A DNA stretch of 64,000 nt from Candidatus Kapaibacterium sp. (GCA_044224925.1 JBGAJM010000010.1:914-64913); one strand, 5' to 3'; counted from the stretch's first letter, positions 4,783-34,326 are shown. Numbers and translations: made by a program. Notes: generated by a model not told the origin, from the letters alone.

Positions 4783-6572
4783 TCATTGCTGCACGACGGC
4801 GATTCCCATCTCCGTCAGGAAACGAGACGGTGCTTTTAAGTATCCAAAGTATCTATCTGAATATGTTATCGTCAGCGCTTCCACCGCACGGGTAAATTCA
4901 ACAAAACAATTCCGGCGTTCCTCTCTCATTTCAAAACTGTCGTCTCCTTTTCTCGTTGCCGCCCAACTTGGAAGCTGATCTTCAACTAAGCCGATGAGGT
5001 AGACACGCTTGAACTCCAAGCCCTTCGAACTATGTATCGTGAGGCAGCGAACCGCGTCCTTCGGCACTGGCGCCTCCTTTGAGCGGAGATCGAACTCCTG
5101 TAGCAGCGAGTGAAGACTTACTTCGCTCTTCCCATACTGCTGAATGACCTCCTGTTGTAGCAGCTTCCAAACTTCTCTTTCCTCCTTATACTCGTCAAAC
5201 ACGGTGTCATCGGTAGTGTGGTGAATCTGAAGTGCGTCAAACCACGCAAATGTAGAGTCGATGAATGCCCAGTGGTCAATACGCTCAAGCAGAGTGCTTT
5301 TCGTTTGCTCAAGGAATGCCCGCGAAAGTGCCGAAACCGTTTCTTGGCTGAGCACCGCTTCAAGCCAGCCCCGCAAATAGTCACCGCTTTGGAATGATGA
5401 TGCAGCAACTACATCCTCCACCCGGATGTTGCTTCCTTCGAGTGAATATGCTGCGCGCACTCAGCGATTACGGAGTCCAACAGTTTCTTGCTCCTACCGA
5501 GAACCACTGAATGGATCCTTACCACCAAGGGATTTTGATTAAACTCTGAAACAATACAATCTACCTCATGCCCAAAATCAGCAAATGGAAACACTCTCAA
5601 TTGTGAATCGTTTGTTGATACCTTGTGTGCTTTAAGGCGCTCCTTACCCTCAGATCGATCAAGATTATGAATAATCAGATTGTTGGCTATCTCGATGACA
5701 GCAGGCGGGCAGCGATAGTTTTCAGGCAGCTGCACAGTTCTCATCGAGAAGCGCTTCAAAAGGTCCTGAAGTCGTTTGGGGTTAGCGCCGTTCCATTGGT
5801 AAATCAGCTGATCGTCGTCAGCGACGACGAACAAGTTCGGCCTGTCTGTCGAAACGAGTGAGCAGAGGAGCCGGAATTGTGTTTCGTTGGTATCTTGGAA
5901 CTCATCAACACACACGTAGCGATAGACGCGTTGAAACTGTTTCGCGATTGCGGGACGCTCTTCCAAAAGTTGAACAGCCAGGCCGATGAGCGAAGCAAAA
6001 TCCAAATGGTTCCCCTTTATGAGTTCAACGCGGTAAGCATTGAACATTTGGGTTAGAAACTCTTTGTGCTGATGTGCGCCTAGCCGCTCGGCCAGTTCCT
6101 TCGGGTTCGAGCACTCAGCAAGCATCTTATCAATGACCGGCAATACGTTGGCAGCTCCTGAGATTGTTTCTGCAACTTCGTCACTGAGCATTCTCATCGC
6201 TTCAGTGGCCACCGCTTCACGGTCCGCTTGCTCGACCAAGATTGTGAAGTCTGGCCTCAGTCCAATGTGGTGTCCATGCTGTCGCAAAACCTCAGCTGCA
6301 AATGAGTGGAAAGTTGTCAGAAGCGCCCTGTCCCTTCCGGTTTTCAACAGCCCCGCAAGACGGGTTCTCATTTCTCCAGCCGCCTTGTTCGTGAAGGTGA
6401 CTCCAAGTATTCGAAAGCGCTCCCCAGAGGTGTCGTTCAGAAGGCGCGCGATGCGATAAGTCAGCACGCGGGTCTTTCCTGAGCCAGGACCAGCAAGTAC
6501 GAGTAACGGCCCATCGTTCCACTGCACGGCTTCGAGCTGCTTTTCATTAAGCGTTGTGAGGTCGATGCTCAT
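4783..6572 (-). pseudogene. gajB: UvrD-like SF1 helicase (GajB-like), split or frameshifted into ORFs 5409..6572 (N-terminal, 387 aa) and 4783..5460 (C-terminal, 225 aa)
   Basis: N-terminal ORF has Walker A LAGPGSGKTRVL and motif II DEFQDTN. C-terminal ORF has UvrD motifs V/VI (LTIHSSKGLEFKRVYLIG, VEFTRAVEAL). The two ORFs overlap by 52 nt in different frames. Confidence 0.6.
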
Positions 6573-8275
6573 AGTCGTGCGTTGTTCACAGCGGTTGTAA
6601 TTGCGGTTTGAATTGTTGCAGGCAGACCCGGTGAGCCACCCTGCTGCGCGGCTTCCACGGCAGCGATTGCGAGGTGGGGTTTAGAGGTAGAGCTAATCGC
6701 CATGCGGATAGTCTGATCTGTGTGCATGGGAGTCCCGGCTGCCGCAGTGATATTAGCCCGTTGTGGCGCACGAACGGCGGAATCGTAAACGGCTGAATAA
6801 CCGTGAGCCCACATTGCGTGCTCAAGGTCCTTCTCGGCCAAGACGGTGAGTCTCTGGGCTTCCTTTGCTGCGCCGCTGAGCCCGCGAGCGGTCATTGCAT
6901 ATGTCTGCCCGGCTGGGTCTCCGTCCGCAAGGACGTGCCACTCAATGCCAAGGTCGGTCGCTAATTTAATCAGAGTAGCGAGACCGCACTGGACGAATTC
7001 CAGACAACACACTCCCTCTAGTTCGAAATCGAAATTGAGAAGGCGGGCTGCTTCAGGAAGAAACCAAAACTCACTCTCACCTTCCACAAGCAGCCAAGAT
7101 TTGGCGAAGAGGAGATTTCCTCGCTTGGCGCGCACGTGATATGCAATCTTGCGTTCATCATCAGGTGTGAGCGTCCCAGGCTGGACTCGGAATACCTCAA
7201 CCTTTCCTTCTTTGCGGGCGAGGCGGCGAACCGCACTGAGCGGGACAGCGGCAAGTAACTCGCCAGAATGGGTCGCGATAATCTTCTGCCCCTTGATCGA
7301 ACTCAGCACCTTCCACAAGGAGCGCACCGCCGATGGGTGGAGGTGAGATTCAGGCTCCTCAATAGCTAGGAGTGGTTCGGAATCTGGGTCGAATGCTTCG
7401 GCGAGCCGTGCATTGAGAAACGCTTCAAAAAGGAACAAGACCGAGAGACTTTGGGTTCCTGCGCCATGTTGGTTGATAGGCAACTTTGCTCCGCTCTTCG
7501 CTGCGAGCTTCACTTGCGTCTTGCTGAGCATATCGAAGATGCGCGCCGGAAATGCCTCTACACTTACGAGATCGTCCGCAGCTAACGGAACGAGTCCGCC
7601 AGTCTTCGCGACTTGTACCTTCACTTCGTTGAACGGCGTATGTGAATCGAGAACAGACTGGTTTATTGCCTCGATCTGCTCCTCCAGTAAGATCCGGGTC
7701 TCTTTATCAATTTGGGGATTCTTCGTGAAAGGTCCCCAAAACGGTGATCGGCTTTGGAAGTGCTGACCAGCGTCACGGACGGCAGCCAAAAAGAAGGCCG
7801 GGTTCAATTGCTGAAGCTCAGATACAATTCTCGGATTCTTTGCGGTCGTGAGTTCATTGTTGTTCAGGTCGAGAAATGACCATTCCAAGGTGAAGTCCTT
7901 TATTGCCGGGTCGTAAGCTGAAACGACCCGAAAACGAACCACCTGCTTATTATCAGCCCGGATTTGCACGGCCTTATCTAGTCCTTGCACAATTGCATCT
8001 GGCCACTCATTTTCCATTGATTCTACAAAGTTGAAATCCATCTCGATCGGCAGGGCGGAACTCGGTTCAGGCCTATCCGCTGTGAGATGAAAATCGTATT
8101 CACCAAACGGGACTACCTTTCTGGAAAGGCTTCGGCTCAAGCAGGTATGGACTGCTTCCAAGACACTGGTTTTGCCCGTGTTGTTTTCGCCGATTAGTAC
8201 TGTGCACTGGTCCAAAGGAATCACAAGCTCTTCGATTCCCCGGAAGTTCTTAATGGTGATTTTGGTTAGTAACAT
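6569..8275 (-). CDS. gajA: OLD-family ATP-dependent endonuclease (AAA ATPase + TOPRIM), GajA-like
   Basis: Starts [17 protein letters not shown] with P-loop GENNTGKTS; C-terminal TOPRIM motifs LLVEGESEF and ADGDPAG. The 4-nt ATGA overlap with the downstream helicase matches class 2 OLD/Gabija architecture. Confidence 0.65.
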   Translation of the reverse strand: MLLTKITIKNFRGIEELVIPLDQCTVLIGENNTGKTSVLEAVHTCLSRSLSRKVVPFGEYDFHLTADRPEPSSALPIEMDFNFVESMENEWPDAIVQGLDKAVQIRADNKQVVRFRVVSAYDPAIKDFTLEWSFLDLNNNELTTAKNPRIVSELQQLNPAFFLAAVRDAGQHFQSRSPFWGPFTKNPQIDKETRILLEEQIEAINQSVLDSHTPFNEVKVQVAKTGGLVPLAADDLVSVEAFPARIFDMLSKTQVKLAAKSGAKLPINQHGAGTQSLSVLFLFEAFLNARLAEAFDPDSEPLLAIEEPESHLHPSAVRSLWKVLSSIKGQKIIATHSGELLAAVPLSAVRRLARKEGKVEVFRVQPGTLTPDDERKIAYHVRAKRGNLLFAKSWLLVEGESEFWFLPEAARLLNFDFELEGVCCLEFVQCGLATLIKLATDLGIEWHVLADGDPAGQTYAMTARGLSGAAKEAQRLTVLAEKDLEHAMWAHGYSAVYDSAVRAPQRANITAAAGTPMHTDQTIRMAISSTSKPHLAIAAVEAAQQGGSPGLPATIQTAITTAVNNARL

Positions 8276-9579: not shown

Positions 9580-11086
9580 ACCCCTTCAAGTTGTTCTTGA
9601 TCTCGGACTCGAGGCGGGCAGATTCGGCAAACTGCTCGTAGAGTGTTGTTGTGAGGCGTTTCATCTTTTCATCGAAGGGTTCACCATCATCCTCAACTGT
9701 TTCTGCACCAACATATCGGCCGGGTGTGAGGACGTGCCCGTGCGATGCGATCGTCGCGAGTGATGTCGATGCGCAGAAGCCGGCAACATCAGCGTAGTCC
9801 TTGCCGCCTTGCCAAGCTTGTAGTGTTCCGACGATCTTGGTGATGTCTTCGGACATGAGTTCACGGTTGACGCGCGACGTCATGGTGCCCATCTTGCGTG
9901 CATCGATGAAGAGCACTTCGCCTTTGCGTTGCTTGTTCTTGTTGATGAACCAGAGGCAGACGGGGATCTGCGTACTGTAGAAGAGTTGGCCGGGGAGGGC
10001 GACCATGCATTCGACGAGATCGTGTTCGATGAGTGACTTGCGGATCTCGCCTTCGCCGCTTTGATTCGAGCTCATGCTGCCGTTCGCAAGCACGAAGCCG
10101 GCCTTGCCGCGGGGACCCAGGTGATGGATGAAGTGTTGCACCCAGGCGAAGTTCGCATTGCCCTTTGGTGGCACACCATACTTCCATCGCACATCGTCAT
10201 CCTTGCGGAACCAATCGCTGTCGTTGAATGGTGGATTGGCGATGACGAAGTCGGCCTTGAGATCCGGATGCACATCGCGACGGAATGTGTCGGCATGCTC
10301 CGGTCCAATGTCGGCCTCGATCCCGCGGATCGCAAGATTCATGATGGCAAGTCGACGCGTGGTGGCGTTGCTCTCCTGTCCGTAGATGCTGATGTCGCCG
10401 ATCTTCCCGCCATGCGCCTCGACGAACTTCTCGCTCTGCACGAACATGCCACCGGATCCGCAACACGGATCGTAGATGCGACCCTTGTAGGGTGCGAGCA
10501 TCTCGACCAACAAGCGCACGATGCATGATGGTGTATAGAACTGTCCGCCGTTCTTCCCTTCCGCGCTTGCGAACTGCATGAGGAAGTACTCATAAACGCG
10601 ACCCAGCACGTCCTTCGAACGATTCTCTGCATCGCCAAGACCGATGGTGCTCACGAGATCGATCAACTCACCAAGTCGATGCTTGTCGAGAGCGGGTCGG
10701 GCATAGTCCTTTGGCAGCACACCTTTCAGTCGCGGATTGTCGCGCTCGATGGCCACCATGGCATCATCCAAGAACGTCCCGATCGTCATCTGTCGTGCAT
10801 TCGCCTGCAGATGCGACCACCGCGCCTCCTTCGGCACCCAGAACACCCCTTTGGCGCGATACTCATCGGCATCTTCCGGATTCGCATCCGGTTCATTCGT
10901 GAGTTGCGTGAACAGTTCTTCGAAGGAATCGGAGATGTACTTCAGGAAGATCAGACCAAGCACCACGTGCTTGTACTCTGACGCATCCATGTTGCTGCGC
11001 AGCTTGTCGGCCGCCTGCCACAGCGTGGCTTCAAAGCCGACGTTGGCGGTGGAGGAAGAGGAGGAGGATTTCTTGGATTTGGCCAT
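9563..11086 (-). CDS. hsdM: Type I R-M N6-adenine DNA methyltransferase HsdM
   Basis: HsdM_N region ([32 protein letters not shown]); SAM and catalytic motifs including VIANPPFN. Confidence 0.85.
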
Positions 11087-11109
11087 AGAGCAATTTACTT
11101 CTCGGGAGA

Positions 11110-11736
11110 TTACTCTTCAGCGATCATTCGTTTCAGTTCGGAAACACATTTGGGACCGATCAGGAGTCCCTCCAACTGTTCGCCGTTGGAATACGACCCA
11201 AGCCGATTCAAGGCTTTCGAGACATAACCTTCGATGACGTTTGTGGCTACTGCTGCGATTGGACCAAGACCAAGTGAAGTGGTGGCTGCCAACGACATAA
11301 CATCCTTACCCAACACTGAGACCAAGACCTGGGTTAGGGGTGCAACACTCATTTGACCTTTCGACAATAGTGCCATCTCCTTTTTACCGCCCGGCGTGTA
11401 CTGTACCGTCACCGTTGATTGCTTGAGAAGCTTTCCATGCGTGATCATCGCCGGGGTACGAAGTTCTAAACTGACGGACAACCTCACTCTGCCATCCTTT
11501 AACAAGGATCTCTCAACAGCCGTGATCCAGAAGCTGTAGTCCTCTCCTACTTCGCCACAACGAAATGTAGGACAGCTTTTAAGTGAATGTTCGATTCCTG
11601 ACTTGATGTGACGCAGTTCTAGCTTCTCTTCAAAAGCGGTCTTCAAGTCGATCTTGATCATTCCGTCTTGCGCACAAAGCGGTGCGACAATCGGACTCAT
11701 GAACAGGAACAGACTGATAAGTACGATCTTTTTCAA
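11110..11736 (-). CDS. secreted hypothetical protein with signal peptide
   Basis: N-terminal [23 protein letters not shown] signal sequence; no recognisable domain. Confidence 0.5.
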
Positions 11737-11948: not shown

Positions 11949-13862
11949 TCATCTACAGATCACGAGCGGCTTTACGAAGACGCCGGCACCGCGCTGCACG
12001 CGCACGTGGTACAGGCCGGAGGCCCAACGTGCGAGGTCCAGACGGGTGACTCCATCGGCATCGACCGTGAACGTGCGAACAACCGATCCATCCAGGGCCA
12101 TGATCCGCACGTCGTCGCCTGTGCGGAGGCCATCAAGAACAAGATCTTCGTCTGAGCCAGCCGGATTCGGATAGATGCTGATCTGCGCGTCTGCGACATC
12201 CGGCTCTTGAACAGAGACGGGTTGATTCGTACATGTGCTCGACGGTCCGGGATCTGCAAGGAACAGTTTCCATGCCCCTTCGGCGGCCGCAATGGCGAAC
12301 TCGTATTTGGTGTGCTGCTCGAGCGCGTTGGGCGAGGTTCCGAAACTGCTGGCGCCGTGCATGACGATCGCAGCACTATCGGACACATCGACACCATTGC
12401 GGAAAACCCGCACACCCTTTGCCGAGTCTTGATAGACGTAGATACCCCAATGCTCCGATCCATTTCCGGTGAAGAGCTCAAAGAGGTTGTAGCATGTAGC
12501 GTTCGACGGCTGCGTGGTCGCAAGAACCCAGTCGTTGAGTATGTGAAGCCGACCGTTACAGTATTGTGCGTAGAGGTAGGAGTAACGTCCGCGGGCAGGC
12601 ATCAGCGTACCTGGCCATTCACCGGATGTGAAGTCTCCATCGATGTCCATCACACCCGAGCAGGCGTTGCGGATGGAATCTCCGCTTCCATACCGGATCA
12701 CGCATGTGTCGTTCCGAAGGACGCCAGAGAATGCGCTAGGCTCAGTTGTAAGACCCACGATTCCTGACGTTGGAATGTAGCGCTGATCCTGACGTGTGAC
12801 GGTGCCATTCTCCGTAAGCATCGCTTGTCGGTAGTACGGCTCCTGGATCAGACCTGTGCCATCGTCCTTACAATCCAGCGCAACGGTGGTCGACGGAGTG
12901 CGCTCGACCGGATCGCTGCCGATCTCCATGAAGAACAAGCCGACCGATGCCTTGATCCCAAACTCATAGATCGTATGCGTCGTGCCATGACATGGCGAAG
13001 TCGAGAAGCCGAAGCGTACGCCAACGACGATGGCGGTATCGTCGGTAACATCTTTGCCGTTGAGTTCCACAACCACCGGACGCGCCGTATCGTGGTTCAC
13101 CTTGATCTTCCAATTCTCACGACCGTTGCCGGTTGAAAAGCCGAACACGTTATAGCACGTCTTCTCATACGGACCATTGCCGATCCCCCAGTCGTTCATG
13201 AGGTACATGATCTGCGACTTCGGACAGTAGTCCAAGTAGAGTTTTGAGAAACGGCCGAGGAGCGGCGTGATCCCTTCCCACTCTTGTGGTCTTCCAGGTC
13301 GGGACCGTGTGAACAGCCCATCGATCGTGTGCATCGAGTCACAAGCGAGATCGGTTGGCCAACCGTAGCCGCCCGGCGGATTCGTGACGCTTGGCTCTCG
13401 CTCGACGATCCGCGGCGTGCGTGAGAGATCGACGGGAGGACCGTTTTGCGTGGTGGGATCCGGATCGAAGGAATTCACGGCCGTGTCGAGAAGAGCACGC
13501 TTGGCGACAACCGTAGCGAGAGCTCTGCCCCATGGTCCGTCACTGATGCAGAACGAGATCGTCACGTCGCCGATTGGCGTCTGCGCCGGAAGCGTGAACG
13601 AGATGCTCTTCGCCGTAACGCCGATCACCGTTGCTTCAGTCGTCCCCACGTAGACACGAGCCAGATCCTTGATCGCCGGGGAAACGATCCCACTTCCCTC
13701 GACCACCAGTGTTCCGCTCCCTTCGATGCCAATGGTCGCCGGCTCGCAACGGACGGTGAGTTTCTCGAACATCGTATCGCATTGTGCTTGTAGCACATGA
13801 TCTGAAAGTCCGAACAGAACTGCAGCGATCAAGCTGCAACGCAAGAGGAGGTCACGTGTCAT
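11949..13862 (-). CDS. T9SS C-terminal-domain secreted protein containing an internal tandem domain duplication
   Basis: Signal peptide and a C-terminal Por sorting domain (ISIYPNPAGSDEDLVLDGL...VFVKPLVICR). Two homologous ~200-aa internal repeats (LMNDWGIGNGPYEKTCYNVFGFSTGNGRENW... / ILNDWVLATTQPSNATCYNLFELFTGNGSEHW...). Confidence 0.65.
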   Translation of the reverse strand: MTRDLLLRCSLIAAVLFGLSDHVLQAQCDTMFEKLTVRCEPATIGIEGSGTLVVEGSGIVSPAIKDLARVYVGTTEATVIGVTAKSISFTLPAQTPIGDVTISFCISDGPWGRALATVVAKRALLDTAVNSFDPDPTTQNGPPVDLSRTPRIVEREPSVTNPPGGYGWPTDLACDSMHTIDGLFTRSRPGRPQEWEGITPLLGRFSKLYLDYCPKSQIMYLMNDWGIGNGPYEKTCYNVFGFSTGNGRENWKIKVNHDTARPVVVELNGKDVTDDTAIVVGVRFGFSTSPCHGTTHTIYEFGIKASVGLFFMEIGSDPVERTPSTTVALDCKDDGTGLIQEPYYRQAMLTENGTVTRQDQRYIPTSGIVGLTTEPSAFSGVLRNDTCVIRYGSGDSIRNACSGVMDIDGDFTSGEWPGTLMPARGRYSYLYAQYCNGRLHILNDWVLATTQPSNATCYNLFELFTGNGSEHWGIYVYQDSAKGVRVFRNGVDVSDSAAIVMHGASSFGTSPNALEQHTKYEFAIAAAEGAWKLFLADPGPSSTCTNQPVSVQEPDVADAQISIYPNPAGSDEDLVLDGLRTGDDVRIMALDGSVVRTFTVDADGVTRLDLARWASGLYHVRVQRGAGVFVKPLVICR

Positions 13863-13872
13863 GGGTTGTAGA

Positions 13873-15699
13873 TCAGCGTTGAATGAGCAGTTTGAAGGTC
13901 GTCGTTCCTTGCGGCGTCATGATCCGGCCATAGTAGACACCACGTGATAGATCCTGTGTATCCAGACCGATGCGGTTCAAGCCCTCGTGCGCATCGACAA
14001 CTTCTATGGATCGAACCCGTGATCCCGTTGCATCGATCAGCTCAAGCGTGGCTTTTCCAGGAGCTTTCATCAACACGATCACTTCGGCGCGATCCGCGGT
14101 TGGTGTTGGTTGGACGATCGCGGATTGTTGGTTCGTATAGGAGTCGGGGTCGATCTCCACGCCCGTCACCACCGGATCGCACGAATACACGACCGAACGC
14201 GAAAGGAGTGTGTCGTTCGCTACGTAGACGATCTGAAGCTTCTGCGAGCCCATGGTTGGATCGCAGTCGGGCAGCGTAAAGTAGATCGTACAGCACTCAT
14301 CCTCCGAGATCTCCGAGATCAACCGACCATACAGACTGTCAAGCTCCGCACCGCGATCGATCTGAAACACCTTACCGCGCGGCGCGGCGGCGACGAATGA
14401 GCGCATCGTATCGAGCGCTTTCAGTTCGTTCGGATCGTTCTTGAATCCTAGGGCCACGAGATAGATCGGAATGTTCGCTTGTGTGATCGCGTCCACCAAT
14501 TGAGCGGGTCGTATCGTCGATCGATTGTCGACGCCATCCGTCATCGCGATCACAAACCGGTTTGGACTCGAGTTCACGCGTGCCTTGGCAAGACCAACAC
14601 TCAGCGCGTCATAGAACGCCGTATTCCCATCGGCGTTGAGATCGTTCACCGTTGTGATCAATTCCTGCTTGTTCGACGTCCAGTCCTTGCGTAGCTCCAC
14701 CACGTCGTTGAATCGGATCACACATGCACTATCACTGGGATGCATGCGGTTGATGAAGCGCGTGAGTGCGCGCTTGATCGCATCCATACGCGTGATCGTC
14801 TCGTTCTCGTACGAGATGTCGCTTCGCATACTGCCAGAGTTATCGACCACCAAGACCGCTGACATCTCATTGCCCGCCTCGCGTTGGTCGCATCGAATGG
14901 AGTCAGGACAAATGAAGCGTCCGTTCACAGCGATGCCGAGCTGGTTTGCTTCGCGGAGGCGATTCACTCGACCGTCGACCGCATTGGTATCGCTTGCGAG
15001 AATGGACGCGTCGATCTTCAGCCCTACCACCCTTCCGCTGCTCACCACCTTTTCGACATTACAAAGGTTGATGTCTTCCGGCAGGATCTCTTCGACGGTC
15101 ACTTTCAGTCCACCGCAATTGTCCTCATATCGCGCCACCGTCCGCTGCTGCGCGATGTTGAACGTTGAATCCAGGATCTGGAACACGAATGCCGAACCCG
15201 TACCGGCCTTCTCGATCTGATACCGGTGGATCGAACGGTTCAATGGTTGCGCGGGGAGCGGCTCTCCGTTGACGCGAAAGCCGAGGTTCTTTCGGAAACT
15301 GATCTCGAACAACGGCGTGAGTCCGAGCGACTTCGGCGGGAAGGCCCACACGGTCGAATCTCCCACCCAATGTGGGATCTCGACAAATGGCGAGGTAAGG
15401 ATACGTTTGGGTGGCCAGCGAAATGCATCGATCTCCTCTTGGGGTACATCGTACACCCAGGCTGCATCGACACCGTGGCAATCCGTGAACTGCGGCCACT
15501 GGCTATATGTGCCTTCTACCGTAATCCGGTAGGTGGCCGTTGGCCTGGTCGGCGGCGAGGAGATCGCAATGCCGGACGTAGCATCAAGTCGGGTTGTGAA
15601 GGGGAATTGCGCGAGTGCCAGCGTGGGCACCATCGCGAACACCGTCATGCAGATCAAAAGTTTGCGGACCAAGTCCATGCCACCACGTACAACCGTCAC
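13873..15699 (-). CDS. von Willebrand factor A domain protein with T9SS C-terminal sorting domain
   Basis: MIDAS motif in LVVDNSGSMRSD...TAFYDAL...MTDGVDN; signal peptide; C-terminal T9SS-like domain (ATLELIDATGSRVRSIEV...GVYYGRIMTPQGTTTFKLLIQR). Confidence 0.65.
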   Translation of the reverse strand: MTVVRGGMDLVRKLLICMTVFAMVPTLALAQFPFTTRLDATSGIAISSPPTRPTATYRITVEGTYSQWPQFTDCHGVDAAWVYDVPQEEIDAFRWPPKRILTSPFVEIPHWVGDSTVWAFPPKSLGLTPLFEISFRKNLGFRVNGEPLPAQPLNRSIHRYQIEKAGTGSAFVFQILDSTFNIAQQRTVARYEDNCGGLKVTVEEILPEDINLCNVEKVVSSGRVVGLKIDASILASDTNAVDGRVNRLREANQLGIAVNGRFICPDSIRCDQREAGNEMSAVLVVDNSGSMRSDISYENETITRMDAIKRALTRFINRMHPSDSACVIRFNDVVELRKDWTSNKQELITTVNDLNADGNTAFYDALSVGLAKARVNSSPNRFVIAMTDGVDNRSTIRPAQLVDAITQANIPIYLVALGFKNDPNELKALDTMRSFVAAAPRGKVFQIDRGAELDSLYGRLISEISEDECCTIYFTLPDCDPTMGSQKLQIVYVANDTLLSRSVVYSCDPVVTGVEIDPDSYTNQQSAIVQPTPTADRAEVIVLMKAPGKATLELIDATGSRVRSIEVVDAHEGLNRIGLDTQDLSRGVYYGRIMTPQGTTTFKLLIQR

Positions 15700-16828: not shown

Positions 16829-17290
16829 TTACAACAAATCCTCGCCGGTCAGCGCCATTTCCATTCTGTCCGCTTCTCTTGCACATTGCAGGATGGCGAA
16901 TCGGATCTCCGGCTTTGTCAAACCCACAGTTGGAAGTTCACAGACGACCGTGAATCCATCGTTCTCAACAATAGCACGAGCCATCGGCATTCCGGCATTC
17001 TGGTCCGCAAGAAACTCAACCTGTTCTTTTTCTGTCCTGCTCGGATCTACTGGGGCCGAATAACTGCGGAACTCTACCGACTTTTCGTTCAGTCTCCACA
17101 TAACGTCTTGTTTGCGGCCGTGGTCAAGAGAGACGCGAACCTTCGCTCGCATTACACGAAACGTCGCTGCCGGAAGCGCGCTGATCAGGCTCTCGAGCTG
17201 TTCATTCGTCATATGTCGCTCCATCATGTTCTTCATCCGTTCTGATGATCTCACGTTCCACATCGTCCGCTGCACGCGTAACCCGCTCAA
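16829..17290 (-). CDS. small hypothetical protein (130-153 aa), last gene of the PLD-SNF2 operon
   Basis: ORF overlaps the SNF2 gene stop. The likely start is an internal Met (17212-17227), giving a short overlap. No confident domain; weak resemblance to the YbjN/chaperone-like fold is speculative. Confidence 0.35.
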   Translation of the reverse strand: MSGLRVQRTMWNVRSSERMKNMMERHMTNEQLESLISALPAATFRVMRAKVRVSLDHGRKQDVMWRLNEKSVEFRSYSAPVDPSRTEKEQVEFLADQNAGMPMARAIVENDGFTVVCELPTVGLTKPEIRFAILQCAREADRMEMALTGEDLL

Positions 17291-20200
17291 TACACCACAA
17301 TACGCGCTCTACATCAAAACTGTCATTGCCGAGAAGCACCTCGCCGATCGATCGAAGCTGAATTGCCTCCTGTTTAAGACTCTTCCGAACGATCACGTGC
17401 TTTAGTTCTGGATGCGACAGTATCGTGCGCCAACCGTTCTGGAGTTTATGCACGGGACCGTCGTAGATGATGCTTCTGCACGTGACATAGACCTGGTCAT
17501 GCTCGGTCTCCATTGTTAGAATGATGTCCTCCCTTCGACCATTTTCCAAGTTGACAACCCCTCGATACCGATAGGGTTCCGGATGCAGATCCCATTCAAC
17601 CTGCTGAAGTTTCTTTAGCTCCCTGCAGATCGCAGCAAATCGCTTTGCAAGTGCCTTTGCTTTGCTACCGCTTTCTTTGAGCGTGCGCTCTGTGCCATGT
17701 AGAAGCTCTCTAGAAACCGGGAAGGCGCTCTTGAGTGGCTCGGTGATCGCAGGCGGTATCTGAAGGTCTGCGAGGGATTGCGCGGTGACAACGATCTCCG
17801 AGCCGCTGTCGTTTCTCACTGCGGTTTCATGCATCATCTGATGAAAAGCATTCATCCGCTCAAAGACGCGCTTCACTTGAAGCGTCTCGTACGTTTCCTT
17901 GAGGTACGGATAATAGACCTGGATCTTAGCTGCATCGACGATCTGGTCTGACATCCGCGTCAATCGACGCTCCGTTAGAGATCTCACCCTATCTACACGA
18001 CCTATTCGTTGTTCCATGGAAGATGGCATCCAGCCGATACCATAGTGGTAGATGCGCGCGCAGAACAAATGCAGATCTTCGCCCTCTTGGAGAAGGTCCG
18101 TCGTAACAAGTACAAAGGGATAGCCTGGCATCCGGAATTGCTTTACAACCCTGCGATTGATCCGGCCATACATCCCCGCAACAGGCATCTGTTCGCCAAG
18201 AGTTCGTGCAGTTACTCGGTCGTATGCGATGGGAGATTGCGATCCAAGATCATCCAGATTTAGATCAATGATTGAGTCGAGATTCGACGCCACCTCTCGC
18301 AGCTCGTGATATGCTCTGAACCCTCCTTTGCCATGCAATTCATCTGTCTTCTGTCTACGAAGTTCCTCCAGCCAAGAACGTACAAGCTTGTCATCTGATT
18401 TTTGATCATCAACGTCATCGCCGTGTGAAGCTCTCGTCCGAATCCGAATCGAAGAACGATATCGCGCTACGCAGAGATAGAGATCCACAAAGGCATGTCC
18501 AAGGCGCGACGTCGTTGATAGTACAGACATCTTGCGCAATAACATTTCGCATTTGGCATCAGTATCTGCACGCACCACGTCTGCTCCCCACAGTTCAGAG
18601 CATAGTTCAGTGTCGTTCATCAGCTCGGAGAAATAGGTCGGCATCTCGAGCCATCTCTTGACGTCAATATCAACTGGATTTGAACCATCCCCATGAGTAT
18701 AGCCTTCGAACCGAACGTTCAAGAGTACGCTGGCGATTTGTGACTCTTTATTGTGCGAGTCCCTAAGTTCAATCAAGGCAGCATACTGAACAGCCTCAAA
18801 CTGCGCTTGGCGTGTCCTTTCGTCACTATTCGATCCACGTTTGCGTACCGTTCGCGCTTTGTCCTTAACTCTCTGCACCAATTCGTCTTCGCCTAGGCTC
18901 AGTAGCTCTGCAAGACGGCTCAGCACGCCGCTCGCAGGCACTTCTAGGACATACGAACAGTAATTCAGTTCGAAGAATGTCGCGTAGACTCCCGTTGTTG
19001 ATCGGAACCGTTTGTTCAATGTGGCGCCACTGAACACATCGGATGGCCCCTCACCTCGAAAGTACCATTCGAAGAAGGTATTGATGCCTCCGGGATCTGC
19101 TTTCTCGACCTCGCTTAGCTTTTCGATATCAATGTCGGGTGTCCTATGTCGTTTTCGTTTTAGTAGGTTCTCATAGTACTCCTCGACACACTTGTTGAAC
19201 CTCGAAATCGACTTGCTATAAACACGGAGTTCTGCTCGCATCCGCCCAATGATGAACTCATTGTAGTGCTCATCGAGTCGTGGTTTGATCTCACGAACCC
19301 ATGCGATCCTTCGGACGAACACTAATGCCTTCTCGCCCGTATGGAATCTCGACGTGAGGTGATCTACAAGGGCGTCCATCTTTGGGTGCGGCAATTCAGT
19401 GTGGAACCTATCGCGGTGACTGCGCGTGATCGCATTCACAACGCCGACATCTGCGCCGTTCTTGACGCGGCTGTCATTCGTCTGTTCGGCACCGTCAAAG
19501 ATCTCGCTGCTGTCACTGCTCTCTACATTGCCTTTTACATCCAGAACATTCTCCAGCGTCTCCTCAAAGCTCTCAAACGAAGCCAGCAGTCCCGTCTGGA
19601 ACGCATTCCCGAAACGAGTGCGAAGCACTGTTGACACGTTCTTTTGCACAAGGGCCGTGGCGAGATACTGCTTCAGTGTCGGTCGACCCAACGGCTCGTC
19701 ATGTTCCGTAAGGCCGCCATGCCTCCATTCCAAACGATACATGTTTCGTGTTAGGGCCTGCCCGGCGACGGAAATAGAATAGGTTCTTCTGATCAGGAAT
19801 TGCCTTGCACATTCATGTTTCTCAGCTTCAGTGAGGACAGTAGAAGTCCCTGGCTTCACGGCTCCGTCTTTCAGTGACGTGAAGTTGTCACCCTTATCAA
19901 ACACCTCGAGCTGACCGAAGAGATGTCCATACGACTGCTCCACCGGCGTTGCTGATAGAAACAGAACGCTCCCAACCTTTCCTTTGAACACAGCATTCAG
20001 CGTGTGATTTCTCGCGGCCGTGCCTTTCTTGAGACCGTGTTTAAGGTTATGCCCCTCATCAACAATGAGGAGATCGAAGTATGGGAGGACCTTGTTGATC
20101 TCCGTAGCTACTCGTTTCTTTAGGACGTCTTTCGTACCCCTCGCAAAGCGCTCGACTTTGACGAACGGCAGTACGTCGCGCAGTCTGTTCAACAGCCTTT

Positions 20201-20687
20201 CCTGGGATTCCGCTGTGACCATTTCACCCTCTTCGACAGATGCCGACAAGCTGAAGCTGCCGAGACGAAGGAAGAAATCACGGTCTGGGTCGATCGAGAC
20301 CTCCCTGACAAAGTCGAACAGTGAACTGATCTTGACCTGTTTCCGCGACGAACCGCCGTTCAGGCCCTGATTTCGCAGATCCGCAAAGCGCACGTTGTTC
20401 TTCGAGAACTGCTTCATCTCCTTCATCCACTTTTCTTGGATGTTACCTCGAGGCGCGATGATCGCCACTCGAATATCTGGCTTGAGATGTCTGATAAGCG
20501 CAAGCGCTCCCATCGCAACATAGGTCTTCCCCATGCCGACTTCGTCGGCGAGATACGCCACGCCTTGGGTATCTAGGATGTTGGCTATCGCGACTGCACC
20601 CTCAAGCTGAGTCGCAGCAGTGTAGTCTGGAACTCCCTTCCCCTTGAATTCGAGCAGTTTCGATGCAAGACGAATGTCGTACTTCAT
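17202..20687 (-). CDS. SNF2-family (SF2) helicase, 1161 aa
   Basis: Motif I LADEVGMGKTYVAMG, motif II LLIVDEGHNLK (DEGH box), motif VI QRIGRVDRV. About 300 aa of extra C-terminal extension. Confidence 0.75.
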   Translation of the reverse strand: MKYDIRLASKLLEFKGKGVPDYTAATQLEGAVAIANILDTQGVAYLADEVGMGKTYVAMGALALIRHLKPDIRVAIIAPRGNIQEKWMKEMKQFSKNNVRFADLRNQGLNGGSSRKQVKISSLFDFVREVSIDPDRDFFLRLGSFSLSASVEEGEMVTAESQERLLNRLRDVLPFVKVERFARGTKDVLKKRVATEINKVLPYFDLLIVDEGHNLKHGLKKGTAARNHTLNAVFKGKVGSVLFLSATPVEQSYGHLFGQLEVFDKGDNFTSLKDGAVKPGTSTVLTEAEKHECARQFLIRRTYSISVAGQALTRNMYRLEWRHGGLTEHDEPLGRPTLKQYLATALVQKNVSTVLRTRFGNAFQTGLLASFESFEETLENVLDVKGNVESSDSSEIFDGAEQTNDSRVKNGADVGVVNAITRSHRDRFHTELPHPKMDALVDHLTSRFHTGEKALVFVRRIAWVREIKPRLDEHYNEFIIGRMRAELRVYSKSISRFNKCVEEYYENLLKRKRHRTPDIDIEKLSEVEKADPGGINTFFEWYFRGEGPSDVFSGATLNKRFRSTTGVYATFFELNYCSYVLEVPASGVLSRLAELLSLGEDELVQRVKDKARTVRKRGSNSDERTRQAQFEAVQYAALIELRDSHNKESQIASVLLNVRFEGYTHGDGSNPVDIDVKRWLEMPTYFSELMNDTELCSELWGADVVRADTDAKCEMLLRKMSVLSTTSRLGHAFVDLYLCVARYRSSIRIRTRASHGDDVDDQKSDDKLVRSWLEELRRQKTDELHGKGGFRAYHELREVASNLDSIIDLNLDDLGSQSPIAYDRVTARTLGEQMPVAGMYGRINRRVVKQFRMPGYPFVLVTTDLLQEGEDLHLFCARIYHYGIGWMPSSMEQRIGRVDRVRSLTERRLTRMSDQIVDAAKIQVYYPYLKETYETLQVKRVFERMNAFHQMMHETAVRNDSGSEIVVTAQSLADLQIPPAITEPLKSAFPVSRELLHGTERTLKESGSKAKALAKRFAAICRELKKLQQVEWDLHPEPYRYRGVVNLENGRREDIILTMETEHDQVYVTCRSIIYDGPVHKLQNGWRTILSHPELKHVIVRKSLKQEAIQLRSIGEVLLGNDSFDVERVLWCIERVTRAADDVEREIIRTDEEHDGATYDE

Positions 20688-22780
20688 TGGATATCACTCG
20701 TCTTGTTCGACAGATCTTCTTGGTTCATAAAGACTCGCTCAAACCACAGGACGAACTCTTCTATACCATCTTCGACATTCGCGATCAACAGGCGTTCGCG
20801 CGCATGGACAAGAGCGCTGGCGACGGTCGCTTGCAGTTCTGTCCAGTGCGGGCTCGTCGTCCGCAGGAACTCGTGAAGGCTTCGCTTTTCCATTGTGACG
20901 ACATCGTTCTCGATTCGCTGCAGGAGATCTTTCATTGAGACTGCAATGAGGTATTTCAAACGGTCATCACTGTCTGTTTCTTTTCCATCATCCTTGGCGT
21001 CGATCTTGCGAGCAAGAGAGATCATAGACGTCGATGATGCGCCGTACAGCATGTTCTTCAGTTTCGCCTTCTTATGTGAACCAAGGGCATCCGCAATTCT
21101 CTCTTCAATACTGGCGATACCTGCAAAGACGCCAGCAATTCTATCAAAGAGCGTCTCGTAGTGCTTCATGAGCTGATCTGTCATGGTGTCCACTGCATCG
21201 ATAAAATGACCCAGGACATTCATCCTTGACTCGATCAACTGTGCGCGACGTTCGGCAGACAGCGTTGACCAGAACTCGATGATCTGAGCGATCGTAAACG
21301 ACTCCACTAATGGCGCCTTGAGATACATATTATGTTCGCTGATGAGCACAGCGTACTCACGTCCCTGCGCTGTGAAGACCGTAACTTTCGATCGCGTAGC
21401 GAGCTGACGCTCAAGACGTTCTCTCGATTCTGTTGGGAGAACGTATTCCTCGTTGACTCTCGTAGGTCTCGTGGCTAGTTCCAGAATCACACCATCGGCA
21501 CCTCGAATGCCATATTCCTGCTCACCAAGACCGCCTTGCCAATTCAGGGTTGCTTTCCTCGATTCATGATCATACAGGATCGATGGGTATGCCCCGTTGA
21601 TCTCAAACGAGGGTAACTCCGATTCGAGAGCCTCTGCGTAACGTGTTGGCGGTTTCGTTCCGGTTTCGATCCACAAGATCGGTTTCCCTTCAAGGGAACT
21701 CTCAATGATCACCACGGCCTCGTAGTTCGGTCCCATCCACGCAGCCGATGTCAGATTCAACGAACCACATATCACGATCTCGCGCTTTGGCGCGGACACC
21801 GATAGAAACCGGTAGAGTTTTGCATGAACAAATCGCGATGGCGCTACTACGTCCTTGTGACGAGAACAGACACTTGAGCTGATGACTCCCCATTCCACAT
21901 TCTGAACATCAGCGACAGCATCCTTGATGTGCTCGCTGATCGTGATCTCACCGTCCTTGCTCGTAGGGAGTGATATTCGGACGACTTTGGGTTTGTACTT
22001 CTTGAGCAGCGGTACAAGAACACTTGTTACTGCCTTGTCGTCTACATACGGGGAGATGATCTCAAGTGAGAAGCCCATCGATTCGCCCCTGAGCACAGAG
22101 GCGAGTGAATCATGCCAGCCCCCAGAGCCGTGCAACAATCGTGTGCGCAAGCGATCATTCTCCTTCTTCCGCAGGGTCGGCTGAGGGCCATCAGTCGGAA
22201 GATGCCGAAGGATCGTCTCTACAGCTGTTGCACGCATTCCATGGTGCACCATCGACTTCAGGCTTCGTAGAAAATCAGCAACATCATATGGAAGAGCAGC
22301 GTTAGCATTCACCTCGAACTCTTCGATATGTACAAACTCAAGATTCTCCCACCAACCAGCCCGGGTTAAATTAGCCGAGGCCGTGCCGAGAAGGATTACT
22401 GTTGTTGTACTATCGTCTTTGTCACGTTCACCAAGGATCACAAAGACCTTCGGATGAAACACGCCATTTGGAATGACCACCGGAATACGACCAACGTCCA
22501 ACTTCGCGCTCATGTCGCTCCCCTCCGTGAGAGCGCGCGGGTCATAGAATACGTCGATCTCCACATCAACGACGTTTCTGAGATGATCGTCAAGTTGAGC
22601 GATCCTTATACTCGGGTTCTGATGGTATGGGAGATCGAACAATGCAGAGACGACGTGATGCTCAAAGAAGCCCGGATCCAGGGTATAAGTAGTAAAGACC
22701 GCAGCTTTTAGCGTCATTCCTTGAAGCATCTCTTGCAGTCGCTCCGTGAGTGGAGAGGTCGAGGCAGCGGCCATGGTCAC
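20684..22780 (-). CDS. Phospholipase D-family nuclease with two HKD motifs plus a ~330-aa C-terminal helical region
   Basis: HKD motif 1 HPKVFVILGE...LLGTASANLT and HKD motif 2 FVHAKLYRF...ICGSLNLTSAAW. 4-nt ATGA overlaps with genes on both sides. Confidence 0.7.
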   Translation of the reverse strand: MTMAAASTSPLTERLQEMLQGMTLKAAVFTTYTLDPGFFEHHVVSALFDLPYHQNPSIRIAQLDDHLRNVVDVEIDVFYDPRALTEGSDMSAKLDVGRIPVVIPNGVFHPKVFVILGERDKDDSTTTVILLGTASANLTRAGWWENLEFVHIEEFEVNANAALPYDVADFLRSLKSMVHHGMRATAVETILRHLPTDGPQPTLRKKENDRLRTRLLHGSGGWHDSLASVLRGESMGFSLEIISPYVDDKAVTSVLVPLLKKYKPKVVRISLPTSKDGEITISEHIKDAVADVQNVEWGVISSSVCSRHKDVVAPSRFVHAKLYRFLSVSAPKREIVICGSLNLTSAAWMGPNYEAVVIIESSLEGKPILWIETGTKPPTRYAEALESELPSFEINGAYPSILYDHESRKATLNWQGGLGEQEYGIRGADGVILELATRPTRVNEEYVLPTESRERLERQLATRSKVTVFTAQGREYAVLISEHNMYLKAPLVESFTIAQIIEFWSTLSAERRAQLIESRMNVLGHFIDAVDTMTDQLMKHYETLFDRIAGVFAGIASIEERIADALGSHKKAKLKNMLYGASSTSMISLARKIDAKDDGKETDSDDRLKYLIAVSMKDLLQRIENDVVTMEKRSLHEFLRTTSPHWTELQATVASALVHARERLLIANVEDGIEEFVLWFERVFMNQEDLSNKTSDIQ

Positions 22781-24117
22781 CCTACTCCTACATCGTTCAT
22801 AAGTCTATGCAGGGTTGGCACGAAGTACGTATACCGTGGGTTGACCTCCAGTCCCTTGATGCCTTCCAAGGAGCCCTGCTCGCTTGCGAGTTTCACGCTC
22901 ATCTTCTTGTTGACGATCTCGATCCACGCTCCCACCGAACGTCTTGTGCTCATCACGAATTGATTCAGCTCAATGACCTTCTCAACCAGCGTATCGTATT
23001 CACCTGCGTGAAGAAGGCCGGCTAAGGTTGACCAGCGTTGTTCAATCGCCTGATCATTCACTCCGACTCGGTTAAGCGCTGCTATAAATGCCGCCTGGTT
23101 GACATTGGCTCGTGGCCCCCACTCTCTTGAAAGGTTACCGGCGACGGCCGATAGAGATACACGATCTTGCGACTGCAAATAGAGAAAGAGTAGAGTGAGT
23201 GGTCCGAGAACTCTCTCGACAGTCACCAGATCATGAATGGATTGCGCGAGGTGTCGATGCTGCGGGTCCTTCTCGGCTCTCCGAGCCAATCGGTCGAGTG
23301 CGTGCGGCCCATACGTTACAAGAATCTCCTCGTTCTTCGCGATCAGATCAACAAAACTCGACTGTCGTCCATGTGTGAGATCAACATCTTCGGATCCGCC
23401 ACGAACAATGTTCGACGCGTAGAATGAACGTTCTACTGCCAACGCCTTTGGTCTGAGAATTGACGCGATCGTCTTTGATAACGTTGAGTCGATACTCAGT
23501 TGCCTGCCGTCCGAAAGAAGAAATCGTTCGAGTTCTCGTTGCGTCTGTTGATCAGGCCACAACTTTGGAAGGTACAGACGTTGCACCATCTCGGCACTCT
23601 CTCGAGTAAGACTGTCGTTGTTCACCCCATCGACGAGTCCGGAAGACCGAAGGGGCGATCGGTACAAACCCCAGATACCGTACACCTTCTGATTCCCGAG
23701 GATCTGCCAATCGCGCTGTGCAGATATCGTGACCTTCCTGGTGCCGTCAAGTCGCCTCTTCACCTGCTCAATGCCACGAAATCCCTGGTCGCCTGAATGG
23801 GAATATCTGGAGTATGCGCACAGTTGCTCCCATCGTAGGAATGCGTCCGAGATGGCGATCGGCTCATTACTCTTGTGACGAATCCAGTCGGCTAGATGGA
23901 GACCTGTAAGACAGATCGTAAAATCTCTCAGCAGCGTACTGACCGTTGTAAGATTGTGGATCAGTTGCCGCCCGGCAGCGATCCAGATCACCTGAGCACC
24001 AAGTGGGTCCACGGATCCCTTGATGGCAGCGTTAGGATCGATCGAAGTGAAGAAGGATGTTCGTTGTTGCATAGGATGAGATCGTCGGGCATGTCTTCGA
24101 TAGATGGCGTTGCGCAA
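22777..24117 (-). CDS. hypothetical protein (446 aa), first gene of the PLD-SNF2 operon
   Basis: Long ORF of coding-like composition whose stop overlaps the PLD start by 4 nt. I recognise no domain. Confidence 0.5.
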   Translation of the reverse strand: MRNAIYRRHARRSHPMQQRTSFFTSIDPNAAIKGSVDPLGAQVIWIAAGRQLIHNLTTVSTLLRDFTICLTGLHLADWIRHKSNEPIAISDAFLRWEQLCAYSRYSHSGDQGFRGIEQVKRRLDGTRKVTISAQRDWQILGNQKVYGIWGLYRSPLRSSGLVDGVNNDSLTRESAEMVQRLYLPKLWPDQQTQRELERFLLSDGRQLSIDSTLSKTIASILRPKALAVERSFYASNIVRGGSEDVDLTHGRQSSFVDLIAKNEEILVTYGPHALDRLARRAEKDPQHRHLAQSIHDLVTVERVLGPLTLLFLYLQSQDRVSLSAVAGNLSREWGPRANVNQAAFIAALNRVGVNDQAIEQRWSTLAGLLHAGEYDTLVEKVIELNQFVMSTRRSVGAWIEIVNKKMSVKLASEQGSLEGIKGLEVNPRYTYFVPTLHRLMNDVGVG

Positions 24118-24141
24118 GATAGGTGTGTCGCAGCAGCACGG

Positions 24142-24594
24142 TCAAGAGCTTGTTTCCACGTCCCTGTACACTCCTATCACCTTTTTAAGTACCGACCAAT
24201 CCTCATCCGTCGGATAGAAGATGCCCGCTGCGCCCTTTGCCTTGATCTCGTCGTCGAACATCCGCGGGTTCTCGAGTCGGATGCCGTATTGGTCGGTCTC
24301 TCCGTCTTCGCCGGGCCATTCATCGACGTCGACGACGTCCACGATACCGACGTACGCTCCCAACGGCAGAGATCGGATGAGCTCCTCCGATGAACCAACT
24401 TGAAAGTACATCTGCAGGAGGTGGTCCATTGTTGCCGTTGCTGAGGCATGAATGAGCAAAGGACCTCGGTACTTCATGTTCCAGGAACGGAACTCGACAT
24501 CCTTGATCCCACAGATGATCATCGTCGCCCATGGCTGTCGCACACTGAGTGCCGGATACTTGCCCTCGTTGTTGGATCGTTGCTTCGTTGCCAT
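24142..24594 (-). CDS. ASCH domain protein
   Basis: From the internal start MATKQRSNNEGKYPALSVRQPWATMIICGIKDVEFRSW; the SVRQPWA motif is the ASCH signature. The ORF track extends to 24654. Confidence 0.55.
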   Translation of the reverse strand: MATKQRSNNEGKYPALSVRQPWATMIICGIKDVEFRSWNMKYRGPLLIHASATATMDHLLQMYFQVGSSEELIRSLPLGAYVGIVDVVDVDEWPGEDGETDQYGIRLENPRMFDDEIKAKGAAGIFYPTDEDWSVLKKVIGVYRDVETSS

Positions 24595-24686
24595 CGCAGC
24601 ACCTGTCATCAGTGTTCCATGTTGCGTTCGAAGCGAACCTACGGGTGTGCGCACTGCGACTCCATGACTTTGATCATGCGTTGTCG

Positions 24687-34218: not shown

Positions 34219-34326
34219 GGAGGAAAGGAGAATGAGAAGTAAGAAAGAAGGAAAAGAGAAGGAAAAAAGAAGGAAAAAAGAAGTACAAAAGAAGTACAAA
34301 AGAAGTGGCACTTCGTGGGACACATG
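34219..34326. repeat. CT-rich (coding-strand) tandem repeats (TTCCTTCTCTTT / TTGTACTTCTTT units) filling the 108-bp gap between the P3 stop and the P2 start
   Basis: Plus strand reads ggaggaaaggagaatgagaagtaagaaagaaggaaaagagaaggaaaaaagaaggaaaaaagaagtacaaaagaagtacaaaagaagtggcac. Homologous to the tract after P6 (44396..44470). Confidence 0.85.

Follow-up and report, generated by a model that had tools for sequence, protein, structure and literature searches.

Gene Organization of the Locus

The analyzed DNA is a 64,000-nucleotide (nt) stretch from Candidatus Kapaibacterium sp. (GCA_044224925.1, JBGAJM010000010.1:914-64913), hereafter the window, on which all gene coordinates are counted. It contains an operon of four consecutive open reading frames (ORFs) on the minus strand, here termed A, B, C, and D, at the coordinates at which an earlier note on this DNA had placed them. 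Gene A (22777..24072) encodes a protein of 431 amino acids (aa). Gene B (20684..22780) encodes a 698-aa nuclease of the phospholipase D (PLD) type with two HKD motifs. Gene C (17202..20687) encodes a 1161-aa ATPase of the SNF2/superfamily 2 (SF2) type, a predicted translocase on double-stranded DNA. Gene D (16829..17212) encodes a 127-aa protein similar to members of the superfamily of YbjN and type III secretion system (T3SS) chaperones (the TY-chaperone superfamily).

The most likely start of A is ATG 24072, because the homologs begin there and the database protein (P0001) has 431 aa. The ORF could reach TTG 24117, which gives the 446 aa of the earlier note. A 4-nt ATGA overlap, previously assigned to each junction, is genuine only for B and C. 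At the A/B junction there is a GTGA overlap or, if the ATG start of the database protein is taken, a 2-nt gap, and C and D overlap by 11 nt, ATGACGAATGA, with the start of D lying over the stop of C; the database D protein likewise has 127 aa. Every junction is nevertheless tight, and thus the inference of an operon stands. The GC content of the operon is 0.51-0.525, compared to 0.55-0.57 in its flanks.

A sigma-70-like sequence, TTGACC-18-TATCTT, is located at 24116-24145 on the minus strand, between the stop of the upstream ASCH gene and the start of A, and could be the promoter of the operon. The sigma-70 scan as a whole gave only about twice the shuffled expectation, and the promoter and terminator scan was uninformative.

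Conservation of the Cassette

A profile of protein A, built from 32 homologs, was searched in 185,579 species genomes. Relatives occur at 140 places, with at most 39% identity to A of the window, and are thinly scattered. Among the phyla represented are Planctomycetota, Myxococcota, Acidobacteriota, Pseudomonadota, Verrucomicrobiota, Actinomycetota, Chloroflexota, and Gemmatimonadota. Grouped at 50% identity, the A-like proteins from an exhaustive search with a hidden Markov model (HMM) form 1378 clusters, of which 509 reach E <= 1e-30, and they come from at least ten phyla.

Among 80 fetched loci, A is followed by B and then by C wherever the contig suffices, with a single exception, and this order is conserved in about 75 loci from many phyla. 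A homologous D-like ORF of 124-150 aa is present in 53 of the 54 informative loci, with an overlap of 3-25 nt at the C stop (in two cases it starts just after the stop), and one further D-like ORF had been overlooked by the gene caller. The same gene order in dozens of unrelated genomes is far more than expected by chance. Clustering of all flanking ORFs revealed no family common to more than five of about 60 loci, and hence ABCD appears to be an autonomous, self-contained cassette. The functional unit that the earlier note had proposed is thus supported by synteny across genomes, in which the A, PLD, and SNF2 genes are conserved together.

Several loci deviate from this pattern (positions given with a locus identifier refer to that locus). 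The exception to the gene order, L044, contains an orphan A (10010-11305) and lacks B, C, and D over a distance of 8.5 kb. In L097 (9001-16161), B and C are each split in two ORFs, pointing to decay of this copy or to errors in the assembly. In L027 (11257-12636) and L065 (10250-11807), a stretch of about 1.4-1.5 kb separates A from B and may represent an insertion sequence or an additional gene. L095 (261-12619) has a three-gene variant of low GC content (35%) that lacks D, in which A has 381 aa, B 662 aa, and C 1022 aa; it directly follows genes for HsdR, a DUF5655 protein, and a prokaryotic Argonaute (pAgo) with a Piwi domain. Another three-gene relative is the catalogued candidate defense system PDC-M27 of a Vibrio nigripulchritudo plasmid (A 461 aa, B 668 aa, C 874 aa), which has no fourth gene.

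The Predicted Nuclease and Motor

The N-terminal ~365 aa of B (21686..22780, minus strand) form a single-chain nuclease domain of the PLD superfamily, in which the HxK...SxN motif occurs twice, and represent the predicted effector. Comparison of 60 homologs shows H107, K109, S133, N135, H317, K319, and S338 to be invariant and N340 to be retained in at least 90%, and both motifs of the two-HKD nuclease recognized earlier are present. Comparison of structures confirms the PLD fold, with PLD4, SauUSI, BfiI, and Nuc among the nuclease relatives. The C-terminal ~330 aa (20684..21685) consist of a beta-rich domain (about aa 396-481) and a helical domain (about aa 489-695). This part is conserved in the family, with W412, M483, W502, Y608, and W677 as conserved positions, and had no recognizable relative in a domain scan of the family consensus or in the structure comparison.

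The PLD part of B is related to nucleases of two systems. ZacB of the Azaca system matches B at 3.2e-19, with residues 20-361 aligned to model positions 18-336 of 586, that is, over the PLD part only, and the B consensus matches ZacB at 3e-17. This is a better score than that of PDC-M27B (9.7e-15, residues 12-346). Homolog searches with B return only "hypothetical proteins" of the same family. The sole match in plasmids is the Vibrio PDC-M27, and a scan of viral contigs with the B profile yields two loci, both of the same family.

Protein C contains the Pfam domains ResIII, SNF2-rel_dom, and Helicase_C, with an insertion of about 580 aa separating the two RecA lobes. All helicase motifs are intact, namely Walker A (GKT), the DEGH box pointed out in the earlier note, SAT, and QRxGRxxR. 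In 60 sequences, conservation of at least 97% was seen for their key residues, G53, K54, T55; D210, E211, H213; S245, A246, T247; and Q893, R894, G896, R897. Among the PADLOC models, by far the best match is PDC-M27C (6.3e-74), followed by ZacC (4e-23), DrmD (1.4e-18), and DpdE (1e-16). The ZacC match is limited to three short stretches, mainly helicase motifs, and is far below PDC-M27C and close in strength to DrmD and DpdE.

The C-terminal extension of C (about aa 1020-1161; 17205..17630, minus strand) is specific to the four-gene branch. Compared to the Vibrio PDC-M27C (874 aa), C of the window has about 215 extra aa at the C-terminus, and the identity of the N-terminal halves is about 25%. 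The tail and gene D are both missing in the two three-gene relatives, the Vibrio PDC-M27 and L095.

Proteins A and D

Protein A is mostly helical and contains winged-helix-like sub-domains. Its AlphaFold model is confident, with a predicted local distance difference test score (pLDDT) of 89.8 and a predicted template modeling score (pTM) of 0.87. The family is characterized by the motifs FxTxxDxxxxxKGSxDPLG, NLTTVS, FLxWEQLxAYxR, and QILxNQKxYGIWGLY. No family was matched in Pfam or NCBIfam scans; a Foldseek comparison of the model with PDB gave nothing significant, only noise; sequence searches of PDB with A, as well as with B, were empty; and tblastn of A against plasmids gave no match.

The absence of a recognizable domain in A, stated in the earlier note, thus holds for Pfam and NCBIfam but not for PADLOC, where A matches the PDC-M27A HMM at 1.4e-17, with about one third of the model covered. 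The same HMM is matched by all 32 homologs (best 7.7e-26) and by the consensus of the family (4.1e-27). Alignment of the A family with the genuine Vibrio PDC-M27A by hhalign has a probability of 98.8% over 410 columns at about 19% identity. Hence the A proteins are distant, full-length homologs of PDC-M27A.

Protein D, listed in the earlier note as a small protein, is a member of the YbjN/T3SS-chaperone (TY-chaperone) superfamily, where membership requires that PF10722 or PF22551 be matched with no less than the curated cut-off score. For YbjN, the consensus of the D family has an E-value of 5.5e-5 and 23.8 bits, which exceeds the cut-off of 22. YbjN or TY-Chap1 is matched by five of seven D homologs, one with 23.8 bits and another with 22.0. 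D of the window by itself reaches E 0.0097 and 16 bits with TY-Chap1, below the curated cut-off. The homologs of D found number 496, and several of them carry a precomputed PF10722.

The profiles of D and of the C tail can be aligned by hhalign over 102 columns, nearly end to end, with a score of 25.9 and a P-value of 8.5e-4. None of 60 column shuffles scored above 16.4, and the reversed control scored 12.3. These scores hint, tentatively, at a YbjN-like tail that is a paralog of D and interacts with it.

Genomic Neighborhood

The window is a large defense island that includes, in addition to ABCD, genes for AbiE, WYL and ASCH proteins, Mrr, type I restriction-modification (R-M) proteins HsdM and HsdS, and a Gabija-like pair. 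The neighbors named in the earlier note, that is, Mrr, ASCH, WYL/WCX, and AbiEii, are all present. Adjacency to them is not a conserved trait of the system, with at most five of about 60 loci sharing any family. The lack of conservation of every flanking gene led to the rejection of a role for them. The operon lacks a methyltransferase, as noted before, and a separate type I hsdM/hsdS pair is located 5.7 kb downstream. In the sampled loci the neighborhoods consist mostly of defense genes, including R-M systems (type I, type III-like, and type ISP), Mrr, GmrSD, HNH, and pAgo.

The gene directly upstream of A (24142..24654, minus strand) encodes an ASCH-domain protein (match 2.1e-6). An ASCH gene 84% identical to it occupies the same position in L082 (9386-9859) and L083. 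In L092 (18757-19173), an ASCH gene with 39% identity is found downstream of the cassette on the opposite strand, whereas L093 has none, and the gene was not detected in L001-L080. ASCH may be an accessory of the closest clade of the window or a plain backbone gene, outside the conserved cassette.

Between mrr and hsdM (11949-15699, minus strand) lie two genes for large proteins ending in a C-terminal sorting domain of the type IX secretion system (T9SS), which hints at a Bacteroidota-like host. One of these proteins also has a VWA domain; the other contains no further recognized domain. L082, otherwise syntenic, is devoid of both, and hsdM directly follows D there. The Gabija-like pair (4783-8275, minus strand) is located directly after hsdS. 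It comprises a GajA-like DUF2813/OLD-TOPRIM protein (8275..6569) and a UvrD-like helicase spread over two ORFs that overlap (6572..5409 and 5460..4783), a split that could reflect a frameshift or a pseudogene. Tandem genes for TPR-guanylate/adenylate cyclases upstream of the island are present in both the window (30215-34323) and L082 (3298-7544), indicating wider synteny of the two contigs.

Possible Function and Mechanism

ABCD is probably an autonomous, horizontally mobile anti-phage or anti-plasmid cassette of the Azaca/PDC-M27 type. This reading is based on the conserved order A-B-C-D with its translationally coupled junctions, the lack of a conserved flanking gene, the matches to PDC-M27, ZacB, and ZacC, the retained catalytic motifs, the defense neighbors, the low GC content, and the sparse distribution. 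In the proposed mechanism, the proteins would form an ATP-dependent nuclease-translocase complex, in which C would translocate on double-stranded DNA as a SNF2-type ATPase, and B, a single-chain two-HKD nuclease, would cut DNA with phosphohistidine as an intermediate. The winged-helix-like sub-domains of A could make it a DNA-binding or scaffold subunit of such a complex that licenses cleavage, and D may dock on the related tail of C and regulate or stabilize the complex. Self DNA would be spared by what the complex recognizes, be it phage DNA that carries modifications, a structure of the DNA, or a product of the phage. Since no methyltransferase travels with the cassette, discrimination would come from the target or the trigger rather than from host methylation.

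Several observations weigh against this reading. In structure, B matches best the repair enzyme Tdp1, and in one locus (L087) the cassette is surrounded by housekeeping genes with no defense neighbors. DUF6361, the family of ZacA, and ZacA itself were not matched in sequence tests by A of the window, by the 32 homologs, by their consensus, or by the Vibrio PDC-M27A; hence the parallel with Azaca rests on B and C. Both PDC-M27 and the four-gene branch are candidates known from sequence only. The roles given to A and D are inferred. The hhalign probability for D and the C tail is just 12-24%, so the paralogy is weak, and the Pfam scan of the tail consensus gave no match, because of which the YbjN-like nature of the tail stays tentative.

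Four other explanations can be considered. The one that survives best, possible but rather unlikely, is modification-dependent (type IV-like) restriction, in which the complex recognizes and degrades hypermodified phage DNA (e.g., with glucosyl-hydroxymethylcytosine), and the PUA-like ASCH protein helps to read the bases in the clade of the window. BmAzaca prefers T4 DNA in vitro and in vivo (bioRxiv 10.1101/2025.07.10.664194), though a modification cue for Azaca is itself a proposal. No cognate methyltransferase is conserved with ABCD, the modification-dependent PLD-helicase enzyme SauUSI is structurally related to B, and the type IV enzymes Mrr or GmrSD are frequent neighbors. However, Pfam scans recognized no reader of modified bases (SRA, EVE, YTH, or similar) in A-D. 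An ASCH gene is found beside or near the operon in three of the four closest relatives, but it is absent from L093 and from L001-L080. Moreover, between the window and L082, the ASCH proteins are 84% identical, compared to 61% for A, 51% for B, and 51-61% for A-D as a whole. This far stronger conservation suggests that ASCH is a backbone gene rather than a component of the cassette.

Another scenario, somewhat less probable still, is a protein-triggered abortive or licensed nuclease. Here, the YbjN-like D and the C tail would capture a phage protein and unleash the PLD-SNF2 machine on any DNA, including that of the host. The YbjN/T3SS-chaperone superfamily comprises peptide-binding chaperones (PMC9503650), the coupling of D to C is strict, D and the tail of C co-vary, and no modification module is present. 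On the other hand, the tail paralogy on which this scenario draws is tentative, and two three-gene relatives keep A-B-C without D or the tail, from which it follows that D would be an add-on rather than the core sensor. A narrower form, in which D and the paralogous tail constitute a peptide-binding sensor of a phage protein, added to an Azaca/PDC-M27-type core and gating its cleavage, is doubtful. If true, such a YbjN sensor together with A, the fold of which has no solved relative, would be a mechanistically new trigger for PLD-helicase defense.

It is very unlikely that ABCD is but one portion of a bigger composite system, in which the neighboring Mrr, ASCH, or type I R-M genes would be required as well. 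Indeed, ASCH and type I hsdM flank the cassette in the window and in the relative closest to it, and the PDC candidates were first detected as genes embedded within R-M, BREX, or DISARM systems (bioRxiv 10.1101/2024.01.29.577857). Nevertheless, no flanking family is common to more than five of about 60 loci, Mrr and the two VWA/T9SS genes that separate D from hsdM in the window are absent in L082, and L087 has no defense neighbors at all. The least probable explanation is a housekeeping DNA-repair module, in which a Tdp1-like phosphodiesterase, a SNF2 remodeler, and accessory factors free DNA of protein adducts or of stalled complexes. In its favor, B shares with Tdp1 the lack of the Asp found in the classical HKD motif, and L087 fits this role, but the very patchy distribution (140 places in 185,579 species genomes) and the variable flanks rich in R-M, Mrr, GmrSD, and pAgo genes make it unlikely, and the GC content of the operon below that of the flanks and the homology to defense-derived HMMs also stand against it. 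No profile hit assigned the genes to a known repair or R-M pathway.

Comparison with Known Systems

Combinations of a PLD nuclease with an SF2 motor recur in bacterial immunity, examples being Azaca, DISARM, Mokosh, and SauUSI, and their triggers are poorly understood. DISARM resembles ABCD in having a PLD nuclease (DrmC) and a SNF2 helicase (DrmD), to which C gives partial matches. However, DrmC is short and has a single HKD motif, whereas B of the window has 698 aa and two. None of the ten flanking ORFs scanned matches the DrmA or DrmB (DUF1998) models, and the only nearby methyltransferase is the type I HsdM. DISARM was rejected, given that C scores 78 bits with the NCBIfam model of DrmD against a cut-off of 610, that the partner genes are missing, and that no methyltransferase is conserved with the cassette. 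The 7-deazaguanine DNA modification and restriction system Dpd was rejected likewise, with 74 bits for DpdE against a cut-off of 500 and missing partner genes; Pfam scans of 20 neighboring ORFs showed nothing suggestive of DpdA, DpdB, or DpdC, although these families were not searched by name. SauUSI differs from ABCD in being a single PLD-helicase polypeptide with a reader domain for modified cytosine, compared to four proteins with no reader found.

Azaca (ZacABC; Millman et al., 2022) shares with the cassette an uncharacterized protein of about 450 aa, a PLD nuclease, a large SF2 helicase, and the lack of a methyltransferase. The system consists of ZacA (DUF6361), ZacB (PLD), and ZacC (SF2 helicase), and its DNA cleavage needs all three proteins, the PLD active site, and Walker A of ZacC (bioRxiv 10.1101/2025.07.10.664194). 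The likeness to helicase-nuclease systems, including Azaca, that the earlier note had drawn is supported by the matches of B to ZacB over the PLD region and of C to ZacC. The differences are that A is unlike ZacA/DUF6361 in the sequence tests, that Azaca has no D gene, and that the ZacC match covers mainly helicase motifs.

The closest counterpart is PDC-M27, one of 145 "guilt-by-embedding" candidates, with three families in cassette CAS_00110 (Payne et al., 2024; bioRxiv 10.1101/2024.01.29.577857). Its gene order, A>B>C, is the same: a ~450-aa protein of unknown function, a ~670-aa two-HKD PLD protein, and a SNF2-type helicase. PADLOC, to which the earlier note had pointed as a check, indeed provides models matched by all three large proteins of the window (PDC-M27) and by B and C (Azaca). 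The relationship is very distant, as seen from the identities of A and of the N-terminal half of C given above; the match of A spans about one third of the PDC-M27A model, and B is closer in score to ZacB than to PDC-M27B. In addition, the branch represented by the window has two features missing in the Vibrio example, gene D as well as the extension at the C-terminus of C. Literature on PDC-M27, on DUF6361, and on YbjN with SNF2 and PLD yielded no description of the four-gene system.

Thus, the earlier view of an unclassified, candidate new system has to be revised, because the three large proteins match a catalogued candidate in the same order, A as a full-length homolog. Judged by its protein families, ABCD is a distinct four-gene branch of a candidate family related to Azaca, and not a wholly new system. 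Through B and C, this widespread, methyltransferase-free branch ties the validated Azaca to the candidate PDC-M27, and it adds two components, the winged-helix-like A, which has no Pfam family, and the YbjN-like D, which co-varies with the tail of the motor. The cassette could reveal how such complexes tell foreign DNA from self without methylation.

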